The position numbers and the translations under genes are program-made. The notes under the pieces were generated by a model. It did no database searches and was not told the DNA's origin. It saw only the letters and a list, made by a program, of their open reading frames with translations. This document shows positions 1,445 to 56,784 of a stretch of DNA of 64,000 bases, in pieces (within the stretch, counting starts at the first letter, position 1; each line of letters opens with the position of its first letter). The DNA is from Minisyncoccota bacterium. Lineage in GTDB: Bacteria; Patescibacteriota; Minisyncoccia; Phycocordibacterales; UBA9973. Location: positions 48,248-112,247 of the forward strand of contig DASTLQ010000004.1 in NCBI GenBank assembly GCA_035714785.1, read 5' to 3'.

Positions 1445-1945
1445 ATGAATACACAAGTAAAAATTTTCGTGGGAGTGATTGCGTTTTTGATTCTTGCCAC
1501 AGTGGTGACTGTTATTATTCGTCAAGGAAGCGGTGGTCCAGCAGTAAAAGACGGACAATATGATTCTTTTGCGCAATGTTTGACCGAACAGGGTGCGATG
1601 TTTTATGGAACTTTTTGGTGTCCTTACTGCAAACAGCAAAAGGATATGTTTGGTTCTTCTGTTAAATATATGCCATACACTGAGTGTTCTACTCCAGATG
1701 GACAGTCCCAGACGGCAGTATGTAGAGAAGCAGAAATTGCCAACTATCCTACTTGGGTATTTGCTGATGGAAGCCGATTAAATGGTCTAGTGCCTCTAGA
1801 GACTTTGGCTGAAAAGACTTCTTGCCAGTTGCCAAGTGATGCTCCGGTGGATGTGTCTTCTGAAGAAGTCGGAGAAAGCTCTTTGGAACCTTCAGCTGAG
1901 CTAGGAGAAGATCAGACAGGATTGGAGGCGGAGGTAGTAGAATAA
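1445..1945 (+). CDS. membrane-anchored thioredoxin-fold thiol-disulfide oxidoreductase (BdbD/DsbA-like)
   Basis: N-terminal TM helix and a WCPYC CxxC active site. It sits immediately upstream of a DsbB-like gene. Confidence 0.5.
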   Translation: MNTQVKIFVGVIAFLILATVVTVIIRQGSGGPAVKDGQYDSFAQCLTEQGAMFYGTFWCPYCKQQKDMFGSSVKYMPYTECSTPDGQSQTAVCREAEIANYPTWVFADGSRLNGLVPLETLAEKTSCQLPSDAPVDVSSEEVGESSLEPSAELGEDQTGLEAEVVE

Positions 1946-1956
1946 TTTAAAAAACT

Positions 1957-2502
1957 ATGACATTCCAAGCAATAAACAACTTAAATATGTTTCTTGGAGC
2001 AGGAGCTATCGCGCTGCAGTTCTTTTCCGTGCTTACGCTTTTCATGCTCTTTTTTGGACCAAGAAAAAATGCTTTTCTTGATTACGTAGACAAGCACTTT
2101 TTGATTTTAGGATTTCTTATTTCGCTTTTCGCATCGCTTTTTTCGATGGTATATACCGAAGTAGTAGGATTCCTAGCATGTGCATTGTGCTGGTATCAGA
2201 GAATCTTTCTTTTCCCGCAAGTATTTCTTTTTGGAGTAGCTCTATGGGAAAAGGATAAGAAAGTGATCAAATATGCGTTACCGCTTCTCCTAGTGGGATT
2301 CGTCATTTCCATCTATCAGACATTCGTATATTACTTTGGAGATGTAAATGCACCCTGCGATGCTTCTGGTATTTCTTGCTATCAACAGCTAGTCTCAGTC
2401 TTCGGCGGATACATCTCGATACCAATGCTTTCGATGACTTCTTTCTTCTCTATGATAGTGCTCCTATCGGTTGTGCATTTTTACGGAAAGAGAAATCTCT
2501 AA
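1957..2502 (+). CDS. disulfide bond formation protein B (DsbB/BdbC family)
   Basis: Four TM helices. CALCWYQR lies in the first periplasmic loop and a second Cys pair (C..C) in the second loop, as in BdbC. Confidence 0.6.
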   Translation: MTFQAINNLNMFLGAGAIALQFFSVLTLFMLFFGPRKNAFLDYVDKHFLILGFLISLFASLFSMVYTEVVGFLACALCWYQRIFLFPQVFLFGVALWEKDKKVIKYALPLLLVGFVISIYQTFVYYFGDVNAPCDASGISCYQQLVSVFGGYISIPMLSMTSFFSMIVLLSVVHFYGKRNL

Positions 2503-5130: not shown

Positions 5131-5182
5131 GGGGGGTAAGGGGACCCTTAACATGCAAGGGGACCCCTTACATGTTACATCT
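5123..5182. repeat. composite palindromic repeat copy R3 (degenerate)
   Basis: Reads GGGGTAAGGGGGGTAAGGGGACCCTTAACATGCAAGGGGACCCCTTACATGTTACATC, lying between convergent genes. Confidence 0.8.
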
Positions 5183-7181
5183 AGAGGCCGAAGATTTTGC
5201 GGACTAAGGACACTAGCCAGTTTCTTTTCTGAGGAGCCTCTCGTTCTGCGGACTTTTCTGATTCGCCGCCACGCGCCAATCCTGCGTCATTCCCTAGCTT
5301 CTGGCCGTCCGTCAGTCCCGCGCCACCTCCTAACTTCTCGCCGCCCGCCCGCCTCATCTCTTCGAGCTGTCTTCTAATTTCTTGGCTGATTTCGTCCCTG
5401 CTTGCCAGTGAACGCTGACTTGCTTGAAATGCTCCAATATTATTCTCAACCCCCGCGCGATTTGCTGGCACCGACAAGATTGCACCCACACCCTCCTTCT
5501 TTTCAAATTTTTTCATAAGCTCATTCCAGTTTTTTCCTGATAGGGAAGAAAGGACATAGCTCGTCTCCCAAAGTTTGTTTTTTTCATTTTCATTTTTTAT
5601 CCCACCAGTTGTATCTTCCACATTTTTCAAAAAGCCGTAAGCGGTGTTTTTGGTTGTTCCATGTTTCCAATTTTCAATTTTCTCTCCCATGGCTAGAATG
5701 CCCTGCATAGCCCATGCGGTAGAAGAAACATTTCCAAAACCTCCATTTTCTTTCTGCGATCTTTTCAAAAAATCTTTTGCTTTTGCTATAGAATTTTTTG
5801 CAGAAGAGTTTAGTGGAAAGTTGGAAAGGGCGACGATGCTTGCGCCAGTCATGTCGGGGCTATCATTCCACGAACCGTTTGCCATTTGTTTGGAAATAAT
5901 AAATGACATAGCATTTTGAATCATCTTCTCCTCTGTCGAATATCCCGCGTTCAGTAGCACGATGATGGCAAATACGTCGTCATTGTACAGTGCGGTATCT
6001 CCAAACTGATTGCCTTTATACGAGTCCACAATTTTTTGAATATAGTTTTCACCGTTTGTTCCGTACGGATTTAGTCCTAGGGCCATCAAGGCCATCGCTC
6101 GACGTTCGATGTCTGTCAGAGTATTACCCGTCGGTTTATTTGTAGCCAAATATTGAAAGAGTTTTGCTTTTTCAAGAGGGAAGTCGGAGTTTCCGAAAAA
6201 AGCGATTGCAGTCCATTCAGTGAAAAGATCTGCGCCAAAAGATCCACCTTCTTCTTGCTGAGAAACTAGATATTTGAAAGCATTATTTATATTGAAGTTA
6301 GAATCATTTTCTTCCTTGGTTGTGGTAACTGGTTTCGCTGGGGTCACAGAACTTCCGCCACCACTACTTCCGCTAGAGCCTCCACCACCACTTCCACTGG
6401 AACCGCCACCACTGGAACCGCCACCCCCACCACCTCCGCCGCTGGATGGAGCTGCCGTCACCACTAATTCCTCTGTTGGAAAGTAGTAGTCTTCCTTTAC
6501 TCCAAAATTATATGTGCCCACCGCAAGAGAAGAAAAAATTGCTTTTCCTTCGTTATCTACCGGCATAGTCACTATCTCAAGTGGCGTCCATGGGTCACTC
6601 GGATTTGGCTGTGTCGCCCCGATAGTCACACCTCCTCGAGCGGTCCACGAATTGTTTTCATAGTCGTATAAAAAAGCTGTGACCGTGACAGTACCGTTTG
6701 TGTAGATGGAACTTGCGCTGAGAGTGATTTTACTTTGAGATCCAAAATATACGTATACTGTTTCGTTGCCAGAAAGAATTGTTTTGTCCATTCCTTCTTG
6801 AGGATAATTTCCATTTACCACAAATTGCCAGTCATCGCATTTGTTGCCCGTGGAGCCGTTGATGCATTTTAAATAGAGGGATTCGAAGGAAGAAAAATAC
6901 TGTAACTCCGAGATATTGAAATTTTCACTTAGAAGATCGGCTGTGTTCACAATAGATAGCACGCTTTTTGCGTCGATGGTCCTAGGCGTACCAGTACTAT
7001 CTGTAAGCTCCACCGTTTCTCCTTCAGGTAGAGCAACTGCACCTTCAAATAATTTCACATTTCCATCTTGGATGATCAGGTTTACGTCCGCCAGCGCAAT
7101 TTGGTTTCCAAAAACAAAAGCGATTAATAAAAAGAACCCGATGCCGAACACTGCACTCGATAATGATTTAATTTTTTGCAT
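5181..7181 (-). CDS. secreted or surface protein with a DUF4430-like beta domain, Ig-like domain, Gly/Ser linker and prenyltransferase/squalene-oxidase-like alpha/alpha-toroid repeats (transcobalamin-like architecture)
   Basis: Signal peptide present. The N-terminal domain ends in DDWQFVVNGNYPQEGMDKTILSGNETVYVYFG, the W.F.VNG...G...L..G..V..Y pattern. A GGGGGGGGSSGGGSSGSGGGG linker follows. The C-terminal repeats (ALYNDDVFAIIVLLNAG, MTGASIVALS, STAWAMQGILAMG) resemble alpha/alpha toroid proteins. A candidate cobalamin riboswitch lies directly upstream. Confidence 0.5.
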   Translation of the reverse strand: MQKIKSLSSAVFGIGFFLLIAFVFGNQIALADVNLIIQDGNVKLFEGAVALPEGETVELTDSTGTPRTIDAKSVLSIVNTADLLSENFNISELQYFSSFESLYLKCINGSTGNKCDDWQFVVNGNYPQEGMDKTILSGNETVYVYFGSQSKITLSASSIYTNGTVTVTAFLYDYENNSWTARGGVTIGATQPNPSDPWTPLEIVTMPVDNEGKAIFSSLAVGTYNFGVKEDYYFPTEELVVTAAPSSGGGGGGGGSSGGGSSGSGGGGSSGSSGGGSSVTPAKPVTTTKEENDSNFNINNAFKYLVSQQEEGGSFGADLFTEWTAIAFFGNSDFPLEKAKLFQYLATNKPTGNTLTDIERRAMALMALGLNPYGTNGENYIQKIVDSYKGNQFGDTALYNDDVFAIIVLLNAGYSTEEKMIQNAMSFIISKQMANGSWNDSPDMTGASIVALSNFPLNSSAKNSIAKAKDFLKRSQKENGGFGNVSSTAWAMQGILAMGEKIENWKHGTTKNTAYGFLKNVEDTTGGIKNENEKNKLWETSYVLSSLSGKNWNELMKKFEKKEGVGAILSVPANRAGVENNIGAFQASQRSLASRDEISQEIRRQLEEMRRAGGEKLGGGAGLTDGQKLGNDAGLARGGESEKSAEREAPQKRNWLVSLVRKIFGL

Positions 7182-7234
7182 AGTAATAATAAACTTGGCT
7201 AATAAATAACTGGGCTAATAAATTTGGCTAATAA

Positions 7235-7262
7235 ATAAAAAAATTCTGCCGCCGGCAGAATC
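7235..7262 (-). terminator. intrinsic terminator-like hairpin + U-tract (likely expression platform of the riboswitch)
   Basis: On the minus strand, TTCTGCCGGCGGCAGAA (8-bp stem) is followed by TTTTTTTATTTAT. It lies between the riboswitch core and the start codon at 7181. Confidence 0.45.
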
Positions 7263-7264
7263 AT

Positions 7265-7440
7265 GGTTCCAAAAATCAGTAGAATAAAAAGATTTAGGAT
7301 ATCCTGCTCGGGATCCGCTCGAAATCGAGACGGAAAAAATGAATGGTAGTCGGACTTGTCTCTCAGAGAGAGCATACCGTAGCGGCACTGTACCGGAATC
7401 ACACCGGTTTCCCCAAACATTTTCTTAAATTGTTAAAGGC
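7265..7440 (-). promoter_or_regulatory. candidate cobalamin (B12) riboswitch
   Basis: The minus-strand core GGGGAAACCGGUGUGAUUCCGGUACAGUGCCGCUACGGUA matches the conserved cobalamin-riboswitch core (GGGAA..GGUG.GA.UCC...GCCGC.AC.GUA; compare E. coli btuB AGGGAAUCCAGUGCGAAUCUGGAGCUGACGCGCAGCGGUA). Downstream ACUACCAUUC and CCCGAGCAGGAUAUCC are B12-box-like. It lies 5' of the 5181..7181 gene. Confidence 0.5.
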
Positions 7441-7466
7441 ACGTTTTTATTCTATGCTAGATATAT

Positions 7467-7898
7467 ATGGAAAGCAAGAGGACAAAAATAATGGTTTTTG
7501 GCACCTTTGATGGTCTGCACGAGGGCCATATGGATTTCTTTAGACAGGCAAAGGCTTTGGCGGAATCTCCATCCTTGACTGTATCAATTGCTCGCGACGT
7601 CAATGTAATTCGCATAAAAGGAGTACGTCCGCTATTAAAGGAAGAAGAAAGGCACGATTTAATAGAAAAATCAGGCCTTGCAGATAGGGTAGTATTGGGA
7701 GAAGAAAACGACTATATTTCCCATATTGCCAGAGAGGATCCAGATATCATTGCGCTAGGATATGATCAGAGTGATTATGTGGAAGGATTGGAAGAAAAGC
7801 TTAGAGCAAATAGTATAAAAGCAGAGATTGTCCGATTGAAACCCTATAAAGAAAACATTTTCAAAAATAGTTTGCTTAGAAAACAAACTGGAATATAA
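7467..7898 (+). CDS. cytidylyltransferase-family nucleotidyltransferase (FAD synthetase RibL-like / glycerol-3-P cytidylyltransferase-like)
   Basis: GTFDGLHEGH is the (H/T)xGH motif of the nucleotidyltransferase alpha/beta phosphodiesterase fold. Length 143 aa. Confidence 0.55.
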   Translation: MESKRTKIMVFGTFDGLHEGHMDFFRQAKALAESPSLTVSIARDVNVIRIKGVRPLLKEEERHDLIEKSGLADRVVLGEENDYISHIAREDPDIIALGYDQSDYVEGLEEKLRANSIKAEIVRLKPYKENIFKNSLLRKQTGI

Positions 7899-11234: not shown

Positions 11235-12968
11235 TTAATTAGTTTTTGCAAATATTTTCCAAATATTGTCCACCTCTGTATACCAAAGATGGGAGTTTAA
11301 AAATCTGTCCTTGGAAGATGAGAGATTTTCACTCGAAATTCCTTCGACGTTTCCTTTTACTACGTAAATAAAACTTGGACTATATAGAAAGACTGCTGGT
11401 TTTTCTTTCTTTATTTCTTGTTCAAACTGGCTATATTTTTCTGCTCGTACCTCTTCGTCGAGAGTGATCAATGCTTCTTCCAAAATTTTGTCTACTCGCA
11501 CATTTGTGTACATTGCAACATTTAACCCAGGATCTTTTCGCTGAGACGAATGCCAGAATGCAAACAAGTCTGATTGTCGATTGACGATTTCTCCGAATAG
11601 TAAGGCGTCATATTTTCGTGGGCGAATGACAGTCTGATTCAAATCTCCGGATTCAAAAGTTTTTATTTCTACTTGTATGCCGAAATGATCAAGGTCTTCT
11701 TTCACGATGTTTGCTGCTCGGACCAGATCTTCTGAGTTGCTGGTGGAGATAGAAAAGGAGAGAGACTGGTTGTCTTTTCCTTTTTGCCAAATTCCGTCAG
11801 CGTTCTTTTTCCAACCACTTTTGGTTAGCAATTCTTCCGCTTGCGTGATTCGTTCGTCGCGAGGCAGGGTATCTCCATAATTTCCGTTTACTGAAAGTGG
11901 GTCTGGCAGTGGACCGTTGATTACTTTTCCGTATCCATATAGTACCTCACTTACTATTCTATTTTTATCCACCAAAAGGTCAATAGCACTGATGATGTTT
12001 TTGTCTGTAAAAATTTGGTTCTCGCTTTGATTAAAGAAAATACCGAAGATTCGTGGAAGAATATATGACTCCACTCGGTAGCCTTTGCTTTCCAAGAGTT
12101 CTGCGTTTCTAGGAGAGATTTGGGAGATGTGCTCCACTTCTTTTCTTTCAAGGGCAGAAATCAGATCTATTTCGTTTTGATAAAAACGGATATCCATTTT
12201 TTTAATATATGGTCTTCCTAGAGCAAATTTCTTGAAAGGAACTAGTTCAGCTGAGGTGATAGTACCCTGAGGGCTTTTACCCATTTTCTTTATTTGAAAA
12301 GCGCCGGACCCAATTGGGTTAATATTTAAATCTGAAAGTTCCAAGGGAAAACCATTCCAAAGATGTTCGGGCAAAATTCCCACTGTGGTATTTTCAATAA
12401 AAGAAGCATCCGGTCCACGCAATCTAAATGAGACAGTCAGGTCGTCAATCTTTTCTACCTCCACTCCGTCCCAGTTGGCACTGAGAGGGGATCGTAAGAC
12501 AGGATTTTTAATTTCACTGATGGTAAAGAGGATGTCGTCGGCACTGACAGACTCACCGTCATGGAAAAATACTTTTTCTTTTAGCGTGAAAGTGTAAGTA
12601 CGTCCGTCTTCTGAAATCTCGTAACTTTCCGCAAGGTCTGGAATGAGGTCACCTTCAGGATCTTTTCGTAAAAGACCAGAATATACTAGAGCTGAAAGAT
12701 CACGGTCTACGTCAGTGAAAGCAAGTACTGGATTAATGAAGCGGGGAGTACCCACGATTCCTTCTGTGACGCTTCCTCCTCGGAGTGGAGTCTTTACCAT
12801 AAATGATTGATTCAAGTCATGAAGCAGAATAAATGAGCTTATTAAAAATGCAAAAGTCAGCACCGAAAGAATCACCCATTCTTTTTTTGAAAAAGCTGAA
12901 AACGCCAAGAGAAAGTCCTTTTTTGAAGGCAATTTTAAATTGCGTATGAAATCAAATATTTTTTGCAT
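11235..12968 (-). CDS. ABC transporter substrate-binding protein, family 5 (peptide/nickel-type), membrane anchored
   Basis: N-terminal TM helix. DPEGDLIPDLAESYEISEDGRTYTFTLKEKVFFHDGESVSADDILFT matches the SBP_bac_5 signature. Confidence 0.7.
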   Translation of the reverse strand: MQKIFDFIRNLKLPSKKDFLLAFSAFSKKEWVILSVLTFAFLISSFILLHDLNQSFMVKTPLRGGSVTEGIVGTPRFINPVLAFTDVDRDLSALVYSGLLRKDPEGDLIPDLAESYEISEDGRTYTFTLKEKVFFHDGESVSADDILFTISEIKNPVLRSPLSANWDGVEVEKIDDLTVSFRLRGPDASFIENTTVGILPEHLWNGFPLELSDLNINPIGSGAFQIKKMGKSPQGTITSAELVPFKKFALGRPYIKKMDIRFYQNEIDLISALERKEVEHISQISPRNAELLESKGYRVESYILPRIFGIFFNQSENQIFTDKNIISAIDLLVDKNRIVSEVLYGYGKVINGPLPDPLSVNGNYGDTLPRDERITQAEELLTKSGWKKNADGIWQKGKDNQSLSFSISTSNSEDLVRAANIVKEDLDHFGIQVEIKTFESGDLNQTVIRPRKYDALLFGEIVNRQSDLFAFWHSSQRKDPGLNVAMYTNVRVDKILEEALITLDEEVRAEKYSQFEQEIKKEKPAVFLYSPSFIYVVKGNVEGISSENLSSSKDRFLNSHLWYTEVDNIWKIFAKTN

Positions 12969-21350: not shown

Positions 21351-22395
21351 ATACACAAGAACGTCATCCATACGGATAGGCGTTTTTGTTTGAACTTTGA
21401 CAATATGATTGAATAAAATTGAGAACGCCGACATTTCAAGTCGGCAAGCAAGTCTCAAGAAGTTTTGTAAATAAATAATCAGAGCTAGGAACAAGAAATT
21501 AAAACACAAAAACAATACTGTTTTTTGTTTTGTTTCGTTCCACTGTCAATTTTTTAAAATGACAGCCTAACTTTTAGTTAGAGTTTGATCCTAGCTCAGG
21601 ATGAACGCTGGCGGCGTGGCTAAGGCATGCAAGTCGAACGAATCAGTCCCATGAATGGATGAAAGAAGTTTTGAGTAGCAATACAAGAGACAGATGGATT
21701 TCTGGATTGGGTTTGCTGGTTAGTGGCGAACGAGGTAGTAATACATAGGAACTTCCCCCAGAGTCGTGAATAATCCGGAGAAATCCGGACTAATACACGA
21801 TGGTCTCTTCCGCCAATTGGCGGAAGAGTAAAGTTTTAACGCTCTGGGAAAGGCCTGTGCGATATCAGCTAGTTGGTAGGGTAATGGCCTACCAAGGCTA
21901 TGACGTCTAGGGGAGCTGAGAGGCTGACCCCCACCGATGGAACTGAGACACGGTCCATACACCTACGGGTGGCTGCAGTCAAGAACCTTCCACAATGGAC
22001 GAAAGTCTGATGGAGCGACGCCGCGTGATTGATGAAGTCCCTTTGGGACGTAAAGATCTTTTATGAGGGAAGAAGTTTATTGACGGTACCTCATGAATAA
22101 GAGGCTCCTAATCTCGTGCCAGCAGGAGCGGTAATACGAGAGCCTCGAGCGTTATCCGGAATTATTGGGCGTAAAGGGTGCGTAGGTTGTTCTGTTAGTC
22201 TTTCGTTAAATCCTTGGGCTTAACCCAAGAACCGCGGAAGAAACGGCAGGACTTGAAAGTGCGAGAGGCGTACGGAACTCATGGTGTAGGGGTGAAATCC
22301 GTTGATATCATGGGGAACACCGAAGGCGAAAGCAGTACGCTGGCGCATATTTGACACTGAAGCACGAAAGCGTGGGTAGCGAATGGGATTAGATA

Positions 22396-23436
22396 ATCCC
22401 GTCACCGCATTACAATAGTGACGAAGGTGTCTCTTTTTTGTGGCGACACAAGATTGCAATCTAGCTATATCGGTGAAACTCCATACAATATGAAATTTAC
22501 TGATTTCGTATGGACAACCCCGAGGGAAGTTTGATATTTATATCAAACCCCGTAGAGACTATGAATTTGAGAAAAGATAGTAGGAGTTATTAACATTAAT
22601 AAATATGAAAATAACACCTTTGTCAAAAAATGTTCGAGACATCATTCTCGGGTCACTTTTGGGAGATGGCTCTTTGGCCATAAATCCAAAATACAAAAGT
22701 CCTCGATTTTCTTTCAGGCATTCCGTTAAACAAAAGGAATATTTCTTTTGGAAGATGGACATGTTAAAAGAAATTTCAGGTGAATCTTGTTATTGGCTTC
22801 AAGGTAGTGAAAAAAAGCCAGATGGTTGGGGAACGGCCAAATACCGTTTTCAGAGCAGGGCATTGGCTTGTTTGACTGAAATTTATAATCTAACTCATCA
22901 CAGAGTTTCAGGTACTAAAGTTCGGGTAACAAGAAAATGGCTAAATCAATTGTCTCCTTTGTCGCTTGCGATATGGTGGCAAGATGATGGATCCCTTGTA
23001 TCTGATTCCCGCCAGGGAGTGATTTGTACGGATGGTTTTTCCTTTGAAGAAGTGGAAATCATTCATCAATATTTTAGAAAAGTTTGGAATATTGAAACAA
23101 AAATTGGCCGAGTTTCAAATCAAGATAAGTGGAGGATTTGGATTCGATCTTCTGAGGAACTAAAAAAATTCCTCAGGATTATAATTCCGCATGTGTATAC
23201 AAAAAGCATGCTTTATAAAATACTCCTCATCTATAAAGACTCTCAAGTTCAAGAACGCTGGATATCTGAGTTAATTTCTTTAGGAAATTTTTCTGAAAAA
23301 GAAATTAGAGAAGTTCTAGAAAATAGAATTTCAAGAAAGCTCAGATAAAGATATAGTCCGGACTGTATGGCAACATACAGAGGTAAACAGAAATGTTTTA
23401 CCCTTCATAATTTAATTATGAAAGTAACAAAATCAA
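22396..23436 (+). mobile_element. intron (probably group I) inserted in 16S rRNA after GGGATTAGATA, carrying a homing-endonuclease ORF
   Basis: It breaks the universally conserved GGATTAGATACCCTGGTAGTCC region. The boundaries are approximate, to within a few nt. Confidence 0.7.
22605..23348 (+). CDS. double-motif LAGLIDADG homing endonuclease (intron-encoded)
   Basis: Two LAGLIDADG motifs, ILGSLLGDGSL and AIWWQDDGSL, in a 247-aa ORF lying entirely within the 16S intron. Confidence 0.85.
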   Translation: MKITPLSKNVRDIILGSLLGDGSLAINPKYKSPRFSFRHSVKQKEYFFWKMDMLKEISGESCYWLQGSEKKPDGWGTAKYRFQSRALACLTEIYNLTHHRVSGTKVRVTRKWLNQLSPLSLAIWWQDDGSLVSDSRQGVICTDGFSFEEVEIIHQYFRKVWNIETKIGRVSNQDKWRIWIRSSEELKKFLRIIIPHVYTKSMLYKILLIYKDSQVQERWISELISLGNFSEKEIREVLENRISRKLR

Positions 23437-23531
23437 CCCCAGTAGTCCACGCCCTAAACGATCTTCTCTCGGTTTTCGGAGTATCGACCCTCTGAGAGCC
23501 TTAGCTAACGCGTTAAGAGAAGCGCCTGGGA

Positions 23532-23563
<32 letters not shown>

Positions 23564-23977
23564 AGACGGGGACTTGCACAAGCAGTGGATTATGTGGTTT
23601 AATTCGATGGTAAACGAAGAACCTTACCAGGGTTAGAAATCCTATTGAAAGGTCTAGGAAACTAGATCCCTCGCAAGACTGTAGGACAGGTGATGCATGG
23701 CCGTCGTCAGTTCGTGGTTTGAATTGTACCCTTAAGTGGGCTAACGAACGCAACCCTCGTTGTGTGTTACAAGTGTCACACGAGACTGCCCCCACCAAAG
23801 CGCACGAAGCGCGAAAATTTTTTCGCAATAACTTCGCGAATTTTGGTGGGGGAGGAAGGAGAGGATGACGCCAGGTCAGCATGTCCCTTTGATACCCTGG
23901 GCTACACACATAATACAATGGCCGTTACAACGCGCAGCGACGAGGCGACTCTGAGCTAATCGTCTAAAAGTGGCCTA

Positions 23978-24014
<37 letters not shown>

Positions 24015-24412
24015 TGGAATTGCTAGTAATCGCGGGTCAGCTAAACCGCGGTGAATACGTTCTCAAGTCTTGTACTCACCGCCCGTCAATTCAAGGGAGC
24101 CGGGAGTACCCGAAGGCTCTGCGTTCGCAGGGACTACGGTAAGCTCGGTGACAGGGAATAAGTCGTAACAAGGCACGGCTAGCGGAAGCTGGTCGTGGAA
24201 TAATTCAATTTGAAAATCTTCTTTTCTGCTTTATGCGGGAAAGAATTATTGAGTCGATATTGTACAGCTCAATTGACTGTACAATGGACAATGATTTCAG
24301 TCCTAAAAGGAATCTGACATGAGGCAAAGACCCAAGTTAAGGAACGAAACAAAACAAAGGACAGTAAGAAAAAGCTCGCTAATGGCGAGCTTTTTCTGTT
24401 ATAATTTTAGAC

Positions 24413-40918: not shown

Positions 40919-41440
40919 ATGTTTACAAATCCAGAAAAAAATTTAAGAGAATTTAATCTCCAAGAACACATGATCGTGGCGGACCTTGGCGCAGGCACAG
41001 GGCACTATGCTATTCCAGCTGGTAGAATTGTTTCTCGAGGAAAAGTTTATGCAGTAGAAATACAAAAAGATTTCTTAGAAACTATTCGTAATCGCGTAAA
41101 AGAATCTCACTTGGGAAATGTCGAGTGTTTATGGGGCAATATTGAAAAAATTGGAGGCACCAAGCTTGGCGACGATACCATCGATCGAGTGATAGCTTCA
41201 AACGTATTTTTCCAAGTAGATGATAAGAATGATTTTATAAAAGAAGTAAAGAGAATTTTAAAGCCCGGTGGCAAGGTTCTTTTGATAGATCACTGCCCCG
41301 AGCGATCACATCTGGGGCTTAAGAGTGCGGTCTCAAAAGAAAAGGCGAAAGAAATGTTTATCGGTAAAGGATTTGAATTTGAGAAATTTATTGACGCAGG
41401 AAGCCATCATTATGGTATAATTTTAATTAACAAAAAGTGA
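40919..41440 (+). CDS. class I SAM-dependent methyltransferase
   Basis: VADLGAGTGHYAI is motif I (GxGxG). The acidic residue after beta-2 is AVE. Confidence 0.6.
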   Translation: MFTNPEKNLREFNLQEHMIVADLGAGTGHYAIPAGRIVSRGKVYAVEIQKDFLETIRNRVKESHLGNVECLWGNIEKIGGTKLGDDTIDRVIASNVFFQVDDKNDFIKEVKRILKPGGKVLLIDHCPERSHLGLKSAVSKEKAKEMFIGKGFEFEKFIDAGSHHYGIILINKK

Positions 41441-42729
41441 AAAATTTTCAGATAATCATTCTCATCGTATTCATCATTGGCGCTATCGTAGGTATTTTAG
41501 TATTCTCGGGAACTATTCCACTCGGAGATAAAGATAATGAAGAAGGTTCAGGTGGAACAGTGGTACTTTGGGGTACTATGAAATCCGCTGATATTGCCTT
41601 TGCAGTCGAAGACTTTAATAGAACCAACAATGTATACAATCTCCAATATGTAGAAAAGCGTGCAGAAACTTTTGATCAAGACCTACTCGAAGCACTAGCA
41701 TCCGGAGTTGGACCTGACCTTTTTATAATTTCAAATGATTTGGTATATAAATACAGCAACAAAATTCTGACCATTCCCTACAAGAGCTATCCAATTGCCG
41801 TTTTCAAACAAAATTTCGTAGGGGCTGGGGAAGTATTTTTAAACTCCCTAGGTGCCATGGCTTTTCCACTAGCAGTAGATCCTATGGTGATGTACTACAG
41901 CCGTTCTATGCTTGATTCAAATAATATCGTGTATCCTCCAGAAACTTGGGATCAGCTCGGAGCTTTAGCTCCCGTGCTTGGAAGAAAAGATGAATCAAGG
42001 AAGATCCTAAAAAGCGCAGTGGCGCTGGGGCAGTTTTCAAATGTCAGACACGCAAAGGATATCATGGCGATGCTCTTTATGCAGGCAGGAAATCCGATTG
42101 TCGCAGAGAGGAGTGGTTCCTTCATTTCAGTACTTGATCAATCCACAGCTACCTACAACCCGGAAGCTATTTTAGAAGCTTATACAGCCTTTGCTAATCC
42201 AATGAAGGAAGTTTACTCTTGGAATAAATCTCTGCAAAATTCTCAAGATGCTTTCAGTGCCGAAAATCTCGTATTTTATTTTGGATATGCGACGGAGCTT
42301 CGATCTCTCGTAGAAAAAAATCCCAATCAAAATTTTATGGTGGCTCCTATGCCTCAGATTCCTGGTTCTCAAGCTAAGCTTACTTTCGGTAGGGTGACAG
42401 GGGTAGCAGTATCGAGTGCTTCAAAAAATTTAAACAGCGCATTTTTAGTGGCAAGCCTTTTGTCCACCAGTAATTTCGGAGGAGAATTTGCTAAAGCTAT
42501 GGGAGCAGCTCCTGCGCGTAGAGAATTGCTCACTGCCACTCCCGAGGATTCCTATCAGCCAGTATTTTATTCCTCTGCTTTGATTGCTCGAAGTTGGCTG
42601 GATCCTTCACCAATCGATTCAAATGAAATCTTTCAAGGAATGGTGGAAAAGGTACTATCAAATAACCTAAATCCGTCCCAAGCTATTCGTGAGGGTTCTT
42701 CAAAATTAAATTTATTACTTATTCGATAA
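41437..42729 (+). CDS. extracellular solute-binding protein (ABC transporter SBP family 1-like), membrane anchored
   Basis: N-terminal TM helix followed by GTVVLWGTMK and a periplasmic-binding-protein type II fold pattern. Confidence 0.45.
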   Translation: MKNFQIIILIVFIIGAIVGILVFSGTIPLGDKDNEEGSGGTVVLWGTMKSADIAFAVEDFNRTNNVYNLQYVEKRAETFDQDLLEALASGVGPDLFIISNDLVYKYSNKILTIPYKSYPIAVFKQNFVGAGEVFLNSLGAMAFPLAVDPMVMYYSRSMLDSNNIVYPPETWDQLGALAPVLGRKDESRKILKSAVALGQFSNVRHAKDIMAMLFMQAGNPIVAERSGSFISVLDQSTATYNPEAILEAYTAFANPMKEVYSWNKSLQNSQDAFSAENLVFYFGYATELRSLVEKNPNQNFMVAPMPQIPGSQAKLTFGRVTGVAVSSASKNLNSAFLVASLLSTSNFGGEFAKAMGAAPARRELLTATPEDSYQPVFYSSALIARSWLDPSPIDSNEIFQGMVEKVLSNNLNPSQAIREGSSKLNLLLIR

Positions 42730-43520: not shown

Positions 43521-44435
43521 ATGGAAATCAAAGATATAATAATCAAGCTCGGAAATTTACTGGATACATTGTTACCCGTATTAGTTTTAGCTGGTGTGGT
43601 GATTTTCGTTTGGGGAGTGATTCAATACGTGATAGGAGGGGACGAAGAAGCCAAATCAAAAGGAAAGAATCGCATCATCTGGGGTATCGTCGGGTTTGCG
43701 ATCATTGCAGGATTATATGGTTTAATCAATATAGTATTAAATACTTTTGGGTTGGATCCATCGAGCGGAAATTTGGTTTCGCCTACGGGCCTAGTTCCTG
43801 CTACACCTACGCCAGGTACTTGTGAGGGTACTGGTAACATCGGTTCACTCATCTGTAAAATTGGAACAATTCTCAATTCTATCATTCCTCTCCTCATCAG
43901 CTTCGGGGTAGTAATCTTTGTATGGGGAGTAGTGCAGTACGTGATAGGAGGGGACGAAGAAGCCAAATCAAAAGGAAAAGACAGAATGATTTGGGGAATC
44001 ATCGGACTAGTGGTGATCGCCTCAATGTGGGGATTGGTCAATATGGTAGTGAAAACTTTTGACTTAAATCCGACGGGGTCTAGTGGAGTGGCTAATCAAT
44101 TTTTACAAAATACTAGCCAACTCGGTAATACTCCCGGTACTTGTTCTATCGCTGCAACGGGAGCAAGTCTCGGGGACCTTATGAATTATGCGACCTGTCT
44201 GATTACTAAGTCGGTAATTCCTCTAATCTTTTCATTGGCAGTTCTCTTGTTCGTCTGGGGAGTAGTACAGTATGTGATATCTGGAGCAAATGAAGAACAA
44301 AAAGACAAAGGGAAGAATTTCATGATATGGGGAATCATTGCGCTTACTGTGATGGTGTCTGTCTGGGGGATTGTGCGCATTGTAGGTGATACTTTTGGGA
44401 TAGAATATGCGATTCCGCAGGTGAAGAGCAGGTAG
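43521..44435 (+). CDS. triple-module pilin-like protein (three tandem two-TM pilin-like units fused in one ORF)
   Basis: Three repeats of VIFVWGV(I/V)QYVIGGDEEAKSKGK(N/D)R(I/M)IWGI(V/I)G...NTFGL. The first two share an identical 40-nt stretch TACGTGATAGGAGGGGACGAAGAAGCCAAATCAAAAGGAAA. Confidence 0.5.
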   Translation: MEIKDIIIKLGNLLDTLLPVLVLAGVVIFVWGVIQYVIGGDEEAKSKGKNRIIWGIVGFAIIAGLYGLINIVLNTFGLDPSSGNLVSPTGLVPATPTPGTCEGTGNIGSLICKIGTILNSIIPLLISFGVVIFVWGVVQYVIGGDEEAKSKGKDRMIWGIIGLVVIASMWGLVNMVVKTFDLNPTGSSGVANQFLQNTSQLGNTPGTCSIAATGASLGDLMNYATCLITKSVIPLIFSLAVLLFVWGVVQYVISGANEEQKDKGKNFMIWGIIALTVMVSVWGIVRIVGDTFGIEYAIPQVKSR

Positions 44436-53243: not shown

Positions 53244-55943
53244 ATGCCACCACTACATAAATTTACAGCTAAATCACGTGACGCCATTAAAAAGGCTCAC
53301 GAGCTTGCTATTGAACGAGGACAAAACCATGTGTCTTCGCTTCATCTTTTAGCAGCTATGCTTCTCCAAGAAGAGAGCATGGTGAATTCCATTTTAGATA
53401 AACTAGAAGTAGACACGGTTCTTTTGACTGACGCAGTGCTTGAGTCTATAGAGATGCCTGAGACCAACAGCACTCTGTCGCCTTCATATCAGATATATTT
53501 GAATCCTGATTTAGCTCAGGTGATTGAGCACTCGGTAAAGCTGGCAGAATACATGAAGGATGATTTTGTTTCGACCGAGCATCTTTTCATCGCTATGCTT
53601 GAAGTACCGGGTGATACTCGAGAACTTTTAGCCCGATACAGAATTTCAAAGGACGGCATCATGAAAGTGTTAGAAGAACTTCGCAGTCAAAACATCACAG
53701 ACGTAGGTGAGCCAAAAAAATTCCGATTGCTTTTGAAATACACTCGAAACCTAACTAAGCTCGCAAAAGAAGACAAGCTTGATCCTGTTATCGGACGTGA
53801 CAAAGAGATCACTCGAATCATGCAGATTCTTTCAAGACGAACTAAAAACAATCCAATTTTAATCGGAGAAGCAGGAACAGGAAAGACAGCAGTGGTGGAA
53901 GGCTTGGCAGAAAGAATCGTAAAGAGTAATGTTTCCGAATCTTTAAAAGACAAGGAGCTAGTATCGCTAGACTTGGGACTTTTGATTGCCGGTACAAAAT
54001 ATCGGGGAGAATTTGAAGAGCGACTAAAAGGATTGATGAAAGAAATTGAAAGAGCGGAAGGAAAGATCATTCTTTTTATCGACGAGATTCATACTATTGT
54101 AGGTGCCGGCGGTACCGAAGGTACTATGGATGCTTCCAATATGTTAAAACCAGCTTTATCCAGAGGGGAGCTTCGGGCCATTGGCGCCACCACTTTGCGA
54201 GAATACCAGAAACATATTGAAAAAGATCCAGCTTTGGCTCGTCGCTTTCAGCCTGTGTATATAGATGAGCCAGTATCTGAGGACGCTATCGCTATCTTAC
54301 GTGGCCTAAAAGAAAAATATGAACTTTTCCATGGGGTGCGAATCACCGATGATGCAATCGTGGCAGCGGTAAATTTTTCTACTCGATATATAACAAACAG
54401 ATTTTTACCAGACAAGGCAGTAGACCTGATCGATGAAGCATCTTCTTCTTTAAAGATTGCACTTGAAAACAAGCCACCAATACTTGAGGAAACTCATCGA
54501 AAGATTATGCGTCTCGAAGTAGAGAAAGAAGCTTTAAAAAAAGAAATCTCTGCTATGGGAGGATCCTTGTCTGCTGAAGAAAAGCGAAAAGAGAAAAGAA
54601 TAAAGGAGAGGATAAAAAATATTGATACGGAGATTGCAAACTATAAAGAAAAGACTCATGAGCTTGAACTAAAATGGCAAAATGAAAAGGAGATCGTGGT
54701 TGAAATTCGTTCTATCAAAAAAGAGCTCGAGACTATGCGTTTAGAAGCTGAAAGTGCCGAGATGCGAGCAGATCTTTCTAGGGCTGCAGAAATTCGTTAT
54801 GGAAAGATTCCTTCTCTAAAAAAGGAACTCGAAACTAAACTTAGCCGTTTGAAGAAACTTCAGCGGTCACGCAGAATTTTGAAAGAAGAAGTGAATGCTG
54901 AAGACGTGGCAGAAGTAGTGGCTCGATGGACTGGAATTCCGCTTACAAAAATGCTTGAGGAAGACAGGGAGAAGCTAGAAAAAATGGAAGGAGAACTTTC
55001 CAGACGCGTTGTTGGACAAAAAGACGCGATTCACCGAGTAGCTGATGTGATACGTCGCTCACGAGCAGGAATCTCGGACCCAAATCGTCCGATTGGTTCT
55101 TTTATTTTCCTTGGTCCTACGGGAGTGGGAAAAACAGAGCTCACAAAAGCACTGGCAGAATTCATGTTCAATGATGACAGCGCTCTCATTAGAGTAGATA
55201 TGTCTGAATATATGGAAAGGCACTCAGTTTCAAAGCTGATTGGTTCTCCTCCCGGATATGTTGGTTACGAAGAATCTGGCCAGCTGACAGAGGCTGTGCG
55301 CCACCGACCGTATTCCGTCGTGCTTTTAGACGAGATTGAAAAGGCTCACCCAGAGATATTCAATATGCTATTGCAGGTGATAGATGAAGGACGTCTGACT
55401 GATGGAAAAGGACGAGTAGTAAATTTCAAAAACACTATCATTATTCTCACTTCAAATATCGGTTCACAGTATGTGGAAAAATTGGAAGCAATCGGATTCT
55501 CCAACAATCAGACTGAGCAGGATTACCATCGCATGAAAGAAAAAATCAACGACGCCTTAAAGGATCATTTTAGACCAGAGTTTTTAAACCGTATAGATGA
55601 AATAGTCACCTTTGATTTGTTGTCCGAGTCCGCAATTAAGGAAATCGTAGGTCATCGCGTAAAAGTAGTAGGAGATAGACTAGCTACCAAAGACATTGGA
55701 TTTAAAATAGACGAGGAAGCACTGGTGCTCTTGGCCAAAGAAGGATACGATCCACATTACGGAGCTCGACCACTTAACCGTTTGATCCAAAACAAGATTC
55801 TAAATCCAGTAGCTACCTTCATCATCTCAAACGGAGTATCCGCAGGTGATACTATCTTTGTGCATGTAAAAAACGGAGAGCTTGCCATTGAAGCAAAAAA
55901 GGGCCGAGCCAAAAGCCGAATGCCCGTAAAGTCTCGTTCCTAA
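53244..55943 (+). CDS. clpB: ATP-dependent chaperone ClpB
   Basis: Clp N domain, two AAA+ modules ([15 protein letters not shown] and [15 protein letters not shown]), and a long middle coiled-coil (M) domain. Confidence 0.9.
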
Positions 55944-55992: not shown

Positions 55993-56784
55993 ATGCCCAG
56001 ACGTTGGACAACCACAGAAGAAAATAAATATCGCTTGGAATTATTTTCGCTTTATATAGAGCAAAACAAAAGCCTGCGTGAAGTTGCTTTAGCTCTTAAT
56101 ATTACGGAAGCCAGTGTGTTCTCAAGATTAAAAAGATTGGGAATAAAAACTTGCCCGACTCTCAAGGATAACTATCTTCGAAAAAGAAAAGATTTAACGA
56201 TTCCCACAGAGTACTCAGCAGACTTGGCGGAATTCTTTGGTGTCATGCTTGGGGATGGACACCTCAGTCATTTTCAGGCTACGGTTACGTTAGGTAATAA
56301 GGAAAAAAACTACGCTGAGCATGTAAGTGTACTTTTTCAAAAAGTTTTTGGCGTAGCAGGTACGATTTGCGTACGGAAGAGCTTGTATAGAGATGTGTAT
56401 CTTGGCTCGGTAGAGGTTACATCGTGGTTGTTTAAAGAAGGTCTTGTTTCTAATAAGGTGAAATCACAAGTGAATGCACCTTCTTGGATATTTCGAGAAA
56501 GTATTCTCATGGAAAATTTTTTACGAGGATTTTTTGATACTGACGGATCAGTTTATAAATTAAAATTTGGCATTCAGATTTCGTTCTGCAACAGATCGTT
56601 ACCGTTGCTGGAATCTTTACATTTAATGCTAAAAAAGTTAAAATACCATCCGTCAAATATCAGTGGTTTTAATTTTTATCTTACTAGACGAAAAGAAGTC
56701 AAAAGATTCTTTGAAGAGGTAAGGCCTGCTAATTCAAAGCACGTTAGGAGATATTTTGAAATAATGAATGCGTCGGTCGGATAG
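55993..56784 (+). CDS. free-standing double-motif LAGLIDADG homing endonuclease with N-terminal HTH region
   Basis: Motifs FFGVMLGDGHL and LRGFFDTDGSVY. The 3' end overlaps the first ~15 nt of tRNA-Tyr. Confidence 0.7.
   Translation: MPRRWTTTEENKYRLELFSLYIEQNKSLREVALALNITEASVFSRLKRLGIKTCPTLKDNYLRKRKDLTIPTEYSADLAEFFGVMLGDGHLSHFQATVTLGNKEKNYAEHVSVLFQKVFGVAGTICVRKSLYRDVYLGSVEVTSWLFKEGLVSNKVKSQVNAPSWIFRESILMENFLRGFFDTDGSVYKLKFGIQISFCNRSLPLLESLHLMLKKLKYHPSNISGFNFYLTRRKEVKRFFEEVRPANSKHVRRYFEIMNASVG

Follow-up and report, generated by a model that had tools for sequence, protein, structure and literature searches.

The window analysed here is a 64,000-nucleotide (nt) stretch of a Minisyncoccota genome (GenBank assembly GCA_035714785.1, contig DASTLQ010000004.1, positions 48,248 to 112,247 of the forward strand), and the locus in question, on its minus strand, consists of a leader RNA and the gene of 666 amino acids (aa) that follows it. 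The leader RNA carries a cobalamin (B12) riboswitch aptamer. With a probability of about 0.7, we read the locus as a B12 acquisition locus of a Candidatus Paceibacterota bacterium of the candidate phyla radiation (CPR), in which the gene encodes a B12-repressed corrinoid-capture protein at the cell surface. A first-pass annotation, made from the letters of the window alone, had proposed a B12-repressed extracellular capture protein, and this proposal is supported by the conservation of the riboswitch (67 of 80 homologous loci), by an intrinsic terminator and by the DUF4430/toroid architecture of the product.

The core noted in that annotation, GGGGAAACCGGUGUGAUUCCGGUACAGUGCCGCUACGGUA, was located at 7414-7375 (minus strand), and a permissive Rfam scan of positions 7150-7500 revealed a full-length match to the adenosylcobalamin (AdoCbl) riboswitch family RF01482 around it (7438-7287, minus strand; 46.7 bits, E-value 1.1e-7, model positions 1-149/149). 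The call of a cobalamin-riboswitch core upstream of the 666-aa gene is thereby upheld, and the element is kept in 67/80 loci. The check named with that call was a covariance-model score above the gathering threshold; the match is significant, but it does not reach the gathering score of 50. Because its score lies just under 50, the riboswitch was missed by the whole-window Rfam scan at gathering thresholds, which returned one 16S rRNA and four tRNAs and no cobalamin family. Part of the shortfall is due to two non-canonical pairs in the outer helix, as aligned to RF01482. A clade covariance model (R1), built from the elements of 15 relatives, gave the window element 114 bits as its sole match across the 64 kb. 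The parts of the leader are as follows.

7301..7438, minus strand: cobalamin riboswitch aptamer (RF01482, clade model R1 and covariation).
7425-7413 and 7346-7335, minus strand: 5' and 3' strands of the aptamer outer helix (from the sequence).
7408-7392, minus strand: aptamer hairpin.
7391-7375, minus strand: invariant aptamer core, ACAGUGCCGCUACGGUA.
7374-7357, minus strand: variable aptamer hairpin.
7356-7341, minus strand: B12 box, AGUCCGACUACCAUUC.
7333-7315, minus strand: lineage-specific extra hairpin.
7313-7302, minus strand: 3' hairpin UCCCGAGCAGGA, of the P13/L13 type and tied to the expression platform.
7235..7311, minus strand: expression platform (terminator scan, folding energies and the layout of relatives).
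7182..7234, minus strand: spacer of 53 nt from terminator to start codon, with three direct copies of UUUAUUAGCC.
7449..7454, minus strand: TAGAAT, candidate -10 box of a promoter, upstream of the riboswitch match by about 10 nt (a weak call, read from the sequence).

No invariant core position has been lost from the window copy, which also keeps its B12 box and 3' hairpin and a terminator with a perfect stem of 9 base pairs (bp). One assignment of the first-pass annotation had to be moved: the B12-box-like string CCCGAGCAGGA (7313-7302) is the conserved 3' hairpin of the P13/L13 type, and the true equivalent of the B12 box is AGUCCGACUACCAUUC (7356-7341). Relatives carry TATACT or TAGAAT at the position of the candidate -10 box, and a full promoter was not found by a consensus sigma-70 scan of the window leader.

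Eighty homologous genomic loci were retrieved for comparison. In 14 of the first 20, a riboswitch of the cobalamin clan scoring at or above the Rfam gathering score lay upstream of the gene and on its strand. The clade model matched 67/80 loci, in each case upstream of the gene and on its strand; four of the 13 loci without a match have less than 650 nt of upstream sequence. Across 68 sequences, pairing was canonical in 96.2% of base-pair cells, compared with 28-48% when the partners were slid, and both sides had changed in 19 of 28 pairs; none of 500 shuffles reached the observed values. The invariant aptamer columns include GGGGAA, CAGUGCCGCUACGGUA and AAG.CCGA..ACCA. This conservation and covariation across loci indicated that the aptamer is a true structured RNA, conserved and of the cobalamin class, and the 114 bits of the window element lie inside the range of its relatives.

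Like the curated families of Rfam clan CL00101 (RF00174 and RF01482), the element has the core and B12 box, couples a 3' hairpin to a terminator and lies ahead of a B12-acquisition gene. It differs in being a compact variant, of which the window copy falls just under the curated threshold, and its core reads CAGUGCCGCUACGGU where the RF01482 consensus reads CGGUCCCGCCACUGU. The variant core CWGUGCCGCWACGGU and the C-GAGCA-G 3' hairpin were also found in metagenome loci of 30-70% G + C content (L083-L202) and are therefore not CPR-specific; the 3' hairpin, with covarying stems, also occurs in cobalamin riboswitches of other phyla. Use of the core pattern as a metagenome probe for the CPR B12 regulon was abandoned since it also matches the cobalamin riboswitches of high-GC phyla. 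The putative capture operon is abundant in metagenomes, those of groundwater among them, and followed 54 of 120 sampled riboswitch matches. CPR-like copies ahead of other genes were few (L184, L177) and were followed by uninformative low-complexity open reading frames (ORFs). At L184 (riboswitch 11-47, reversed locus), a CPR-type platform and terminator are followed by a highly acidic low-complexity ORF of 849 aa, which stands in place of the DUF4430 gene and has no Pfam match.

The riboswitch match lies about 105 nt upstream of the start codon (ATG at 7181), on the strand of the gene. Between them is an intrinsic terminator, GAUUCUGCC-GGC-GGCAGAAUU, at 7262-7242 (minus strand), with a 9-bp stem, a 3-nt loop and a U-tract running to about 7236, which ends about 55 nt before the ATG. 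The GC hairpin and U-tract reported earlier about 55 nt before the start are thus confirmed, with a stem of 9 bp. It is the sole terminator-like site in 7150-7560, where shuffled sequences had a mean of 0.4. An antiterminator is also available, in which CCGAGCAGGAU (7311-7301) pairs with AUUCUGCCGG (7261-7252); it folds at -14.6 kcal/mol, compared with -11.2 kcal/mol for the terminator alone, and the two folds are mutually exclusive.

The leaders of the relatives share one layout, consisting of the aptamer, the 3' hairpin UCCCGAGCAGGA, a variable hairpin, AUUCUGC...GCAGRAU and a U-tract. Under strict criteria, a terminator-like hairpin was found within 170 nt of the aptamer in 55 of 68 leaders, and in the closer relatives of the window the 5' arm of the terminator hairpin complements the strand of the 3' hairpin. 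In characterised cobalamin riboswitches, ligand binding makes the 3' hairpin more stable by way of a loop-loop contact. By comparison with these, the platform layout implies that transcription would terminate on B12 binding. Cytoplasmic cobalamin, once bound, would hold the 3' hairpin UCCCGAGCAGGA fixed, and AUUCUGCC, thereby freed, would pair with GGCAGAAU to form the intrinsic terminator, halting transcription ahead of the gene. When B12 is scarce, GAGCAGGAU and AUUCUGCC would form the antiterminator and the gene would be transcribed. No obvious Shine-Dalgarno sequence was seen in the 7182-7234 spacer; its repeats may be a scar from the loss of a small DUF4430 gene, which relatives carry at the same position.

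The product of the regulated gene was examined by Pfam and by an AlphaFold model made with 74 homologues, whose mean predicted local distance difference test score (pLDDT) was 82.7, with every folded domain above 90. Its parts are listed below.

5181..7181, minus strand: gene for the transcobalamin-like, putative surface protein of 666 aa, with its stop codon at 5183-5181 (ORF list, Pfam and AlphaFold).
7089..7181, minus strand: signal peptide, aa 1-31, with a hydrophobic helix at aa 4-25 and predicted cleavage between ALA and DV, after A31 (from the sequence).
6744..7088, minus strand: N-terminal beta-domain, aa 32-146.
6456..6734, minus strand: Ig-like beta-sandwich, aa 150-242 (AlphaFold secondary structure, pLDDT >90).
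6303..6443, minus strand: disordered Gly/Ser-rich linker, aa 247-293 (from the sequence; pLDDT <50 over aa 252-293).
5502..6299, minus strand: alpha/alpha toroid, aa 295-560, with the motif xNDD[IV]FA at aa 399-405.
5184..5501, minus strand: low-complexity disordered tail, aa 561-651, and C-terminal motif KRNWLVSLVRKIFGL, aa 652-666 (5228-5184).

The signal peptide, DUF4430 beta-domain, Gly/Ser linker and toroid of the first-pass annotation were all found, both as AlphaFold domains and, for DUF4430 (PF14478, aa 81-147), as a Pfam match of 26.5 bits against a cutoff of 23.8. That list was right in the parts it named and incomplete in overlooking the Ig-like domain (aa 150-242) and the conserved motif of the C-terminal tail. 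In the beta-domain, W118 is invariant, and the model contains a beta-hairpin that follows the helix, the feature that defines the transcobalamin-like clade of SLBB proteins (PMC1796856); this hairpin assigns the domain specifically to the B12-carrier type. The toroid has the alpha6/alpha6 fold, its inner-helix motifs are highly conserved and its invariant residues are aromatic or polar; we infer that it holds the ligand pocket of the window protein. Cobalamin_bind (PF01122) matched the window toroid locally (aa 459-513) at 23.8 bits against a cutoff of 25, among several weak matches to toroid families, and it matched 24 of 74 family members at E <1e-3 (best E 1.7e-8).

Searches with the whole chain were less specific. 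Foldseek returned complement/A2M, MstE and transcobalamin at similar E-values, the toroid dominating the comparison, and so did not discriminate among them. A sequence profile searched against the PDB gave only local matches to squalene-cyclase repeats, which we judged to be repeat similarity at the superfamily level. A thioester or A2M-like identity was rejected, the CGEQ/CLEQ motif being present in 0/74 members and the toroid containing no cysteine. NCBIfam offered nothing useful for the large protein or for the DUF6580 and small DUF4430 proteins described below. A large protein database held 124 homologues, all named ones of which belong to Patescibacteria/Paceibacterota; the window protein itself is annotated there as Candidatus Paceibacterota.

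Throughout the family, the N-terminus is a signal peptide with a cleavage site between A-x-A and D/E, and the extreme C-terminus, after a long low-complexity stalk, is a basic-hydrophobic motif, KKxWFxRLLxxIFxIF. AlphaFold predicts the tail (aa 561-666) to be disordered with a short helix at its end, and a few homologues have a classical transmembrane segment and basic tail in place of the motif. Judged from sequence, the motif is likely a membrane or surface anchor, and may serve CPR as a signal for surface anchoring or sorting. The description of the protein as secreted holds for the export signal and probably not for free release; more likely, the C-terminal tail keeps the protein on the cell surface. 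A thioredoxin-like and DsbB gene pair lies at 1445-2502 (plus strand), about 3 kb from the toroid gene, and such genes stand directly downstream of the toroid gene in distant relatives (L036:4816-5764, L075:4833-5967); the gene pair may be linked with two semi-conserved cysteines of the beta-domain, Cys106 and Cys115.

Most riboswitch-positive relatives (about 65 of 67) carry a small gene between the riboswitch and the large one. This small gene encodes a DUF4430 protein (Pfam 45-59 bits) of 119-217 aa with an N-terminal membrane anchor. Only in the window, L002 and L077 does the riboswitch directly precede the large gene, and the window copy is a minimal variant without the usual partner genes. 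In about 18 loci of distant relatives and metagenomes, the downstream gene encodes DUF6580 (Pfam 146-171 bits), a polytopic membrane protein of 170-185 aa, as at the following loci.

L059, L063, L069, L073, L080, L112, L126, L163, L170, L173, L180 and L203-L206: DUF6580 gene (e.g., L203:6001-6525).

In all four long CPR contigs sampled, DUF6580 follows the DUF4430 gene, with the toroid gene intervening in three; L205 has DUF4430 and DUF6580 and no toroid gene. The L203 DUF6580 operon lies behind an AdoCbl riboswitch at gathering score, and another lies behind a significant clade-model match. Otherwise, the toroid gene of distant relatives was followed by thioredoxin-like, DsbB and unrelated housekeeping genes, with no transporters among them. 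NCBI names the family 'DUF6580 family putative transport protein', and our literature search found no paper that mentions it. The sole solved protein matched by its profile, marginally (E 0.056), was the 182-aa membrane chain of 6FNP, which is the energy-coupling factor (ECF) B12 transporter ECF-CbrT (PMC5997447). A direct profile comparison of DUF6580 with CbrT by hhalign gave a probability of 42%, a lead and not a result. CbrT is likewise a small polytopic membrane protein of similar size, whereas the CPR operons have no EcfA or EcfT genes and the window has no DUF6580. In L. delbrueckii, cbrT belongs to an nrdJ-cbrS-cbrT-pduO cluster. DUF6580 is our best transporter candidate.

Transcobalamin, intrinsic factor and haptocorrin close an alpha and a beta domain on one corrinoid. 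By analogy, the window protein, once exported and kept at the surface by its amphipathic or hydrophobic C-terminal tail at the end of a long flexible stalk, would close its beta-domain and alpha/alpha toroid around one corrinoid molecule. The captured corrinoid would then be handed to a membrane transporter encoded outside the window, which is the weakest step of the proposal. In related CPR lineages, the operon under the same riboswitch further encodes an anchored small DUF4430 protein and the polytopic DUF6580. A more specific route, which we offer tentatively and regard as doubtful, is an undescribed uptake pathway in which a riboswitch-controlled surface complex of anchored DUF4430 and beta-Ig-toroid proteins would pass B12 to DUF6580, which would be a new family of small polytopic transporters, distant relatives of the S-component CbrT, acting without a dedicated ECF ATPase.

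Several observations weigh against reading the window locus as a B12-capture system. Its RF01482 match, although significant, is formally below threshold (46.7 against the gathering score of 50), and its outer helix has two non-canonical pairs. The window is without the small DUF4430 partner, which is present in nearly all relatives. None of NrdJ, MetH, PduO, an adenosyltransferase, ECF components, BtuCDF or DUF6580 was found in the 64 kb. The family has no conserved histidine to serve as an axial ligand, and in L. sakei the proteins Lsa1839 (transcobalamin-beta-like) and Lsa1840 (transcobalamin-alpha-like) belong to an ECF operon that has been argued to serve heme uptake (bioRxiv 10.1101/864751). 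The score, the two outer-helix pairs and the atypical operon, with its missing small gene, repeat-bearing spacer and lack of a clear ribosome-binding site, would suit a decayed riboswitch and a gene that is constitutive or silent. We consider decay quite unlikely, since the invariant core, B12 box, 3' hairpin and perfect 9-bp terminator are all kept and the relatives' clade-model scores span the 114 bits of the window element. The absent partner raises the question of which protein binds the ligand: the small DUF4430 protein might be the true B12 binder, the large protein a surface scaffold or adhesin and the window locus a reduced remnant. The position of the small gene as the first of the operon in about 65 of 67 riboswitch-positive relatives fits this, as do the toroid-free operon of L205 and the assorted surface domains of family members (Big_2, PG_binding, Bact_surface_Ig-like). 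The large protein nevertheless has its own transcobalamin-type beta-domain with the invariant W118 and an intact ORF, L002 has the same direct arrangement of riboswitch and large gene, and the conserved inner-helix motifs of the toroid fit a ligand pocket; a mere scaffold is thus unlikely.

The ligand and the activity of the toroid were weighed in the same way. The module might bind another tetrapyrrole, with heme as the main alternative ligand, or a corrinoid precursor, instead of B12 itself. Besides the L. sakei operon, Burroughs et al. noted that archaeal members may scavenge a different metabolite (PMC1796856). A cobalamin-class riboswitch conserved across 67 loci, however, ties expression to corrinoid status. 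The cobalt-coordinating histidine is not conserved in the window family, but intrinsic factor and haptocorrin likewise have no protein axial ligand, and another ligand is in our judgement very unlikely. Least probable of all is that the toroid is an enzyme, either like class II terpene cyclases and prenyltransferases or corrinoid-modifying, and not a passive binder. The sequence DNDD (aa 399-402) resembles the DxDD motif of cyclases and occurs in 49 of 74 members, yet the first Asp is found in only 51 of 74; the window reads YNDD, with V, N, I, S, G, F or M at the first motif position elsewhere, and the profile alignment sets the cyclase DxDD on a different helix, where one Asp is kept. The protein has a single toroid of about 265 residues and not a beta-gamma didomain or alpha/beta heterodimer, which is not decisive, as single-domain cyclases (MstE) exist. 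It is also exported, fused to a B12-carrier beta-domain and under B12-regulated expression. B12 capture at the surface is the reading that we retain.

The notion of such capture is older than this locus. Burroughs, Balaji, Iyer and Aravind (2007; Biol Direct 2:4; PMC1796856) predicted secreted bacterial transcobalamin-like SLBB proteins to be B12 scavengers, with signal peptides, surface anchors, alpha/alpha toroids fused on either side and added Ig domains, encoded in operons with a second paralogous SLBB protein, in hosts without B12 synthesis and with linkage to CbiO/CbiQ-type transport genes. The earlier remark that surface B12 scavenging is not well described in CPR stands; for Gram-positive bacteria, proteins of this architecture and predicted role were already in print in 2007. 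Common to that clade and the CPR proteins are the signal peptide, the beta-grasp domain with a beta-hairpin insert, a C-terminal toroid (as in their Bacillus example), extra Ig domains and surface anchors (predicted for the CPR proteins), and in both a second SLBB paralogue is encoded by the operon. The published examples came from Firmicutes and archaea, with CbiO/CbiQ-type ECF linkage, and riboswitch control was not reported (PMC1796856), whereas the CPR operons lack ABC and ECF genes, are preceded by a conserved cobalamin riboswitch and often have DUF6580 as the last gene. What is new here is the CPR lineage, the riboswitch evidence and the frequent operon partner DUF6580; the scavenger concept itself is known outside CPR.

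Compared with vertebrate transcobalamin, intrinsic factor and haptocorrin, the window protein has the reverse domain order (beta, Ig, linker, alpha), an extra Ig domain, a 45-residue Gly/Ser linker, a putative membrane anchor, no conserved histidine and a sub-cutoff PF01122 match (23.8 vs 25 bits). In L. sakei, Lsa1839 and Lsa1840 accompany the ECF module Lsa1836-1838, for which heme was proposed as the substrate (bioRxiv 10.1101/864751). That system likewise sets extracellular transcobalamin-beta-like and alpha-like modules beside a small membrane protein of the S-component type, but its alpha and beta modules are separate proteins and it has full ECF ATPase and T components. The surface lipoproteins BtuG and BtuH of Bacteroides, encoded in transport loci under B12 regulation, capture corrinoids at a step before the membrane transporter (PMC6143338). 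The likeness to BtuG is one of function alone: BtuG is a beta-propeller of unrelated fold, lipid-anchored in a diderm outer membrane, and delivers to BtuB. The literature searched yielded no bacterial transcobalamin-like protein for which B12 binding had been measured and no publication on B12 capture or cobalamin riboswitches in Patescibacteria; nor did it connect B12 riboswitches with the 'prenyltransferase' proteins.

Among about 50 window ORFs annotated with Pfam, only housekeeping genes were seen. BtuCDF, ECF-CbrT and BtuM transporter genes were not found in the locus or the window, and B12-related genes were also absent from the short Logan contigs, of 8.7 and 3.9 kb, retrieved for the window ends. 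Two unlinked solute-binding proteins are encoded at 11235-12968 and 41437-42729. The former (minus strand, 577 aa), at a distance of 4 kb from the riboswitch locus, is an orphan family-5 protein without permease genes beside it; at L174 and L189, a complete transporter (SBP_bac_5, permease and ATPase) stands behind a cobalamin riboswitch. Elsewhere in the window, the 16S rRNA gene (21573-24210, plus strand) spans 2638 nt against a model of 1533 positions and hence contains large insertions, in one of which an ORF (22605-23348) encodes a LAGLIDADG_2 homing endonuclease (130 bits). Introns of this sort in rRNA are typical of CPR. A second homing-endonuclease-like gene, a LAGLIDADG_3 ORF of 263 aa (55993-56784, plus strand), directly follows ClpB (53244-55943). 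At 43521-44435 (plus strand), a 304-aa protein with three matches to PF18895 (type IV secretion system pilin, 101 bits) is encoded next to small ORFs.

CPR bacteria, whose genomes are tiny, are presumed to rely on neighbouring organisms for cofactors. The gene under riboswitch control suggests B12-capture machinery in these organisms, and a conserved cytoplasmic B12 sensor implies that their cells import and use corrinoids. For annotation, the window riboswitch is a case that escapes the Rfam gathering threshold, and the labels now attached to the proteins, 'prenyltransferase/squalene oxidase repeat-containing' or 'terpene cyclase/mutase family', are probably misleading. The linkage nominates DUF6580 as a directly testable transporter candidate, and the riboswitch provides independent genomic support for the in-silico prediction of 2007 that bacterial transcobalamin-like proteins bind B12.

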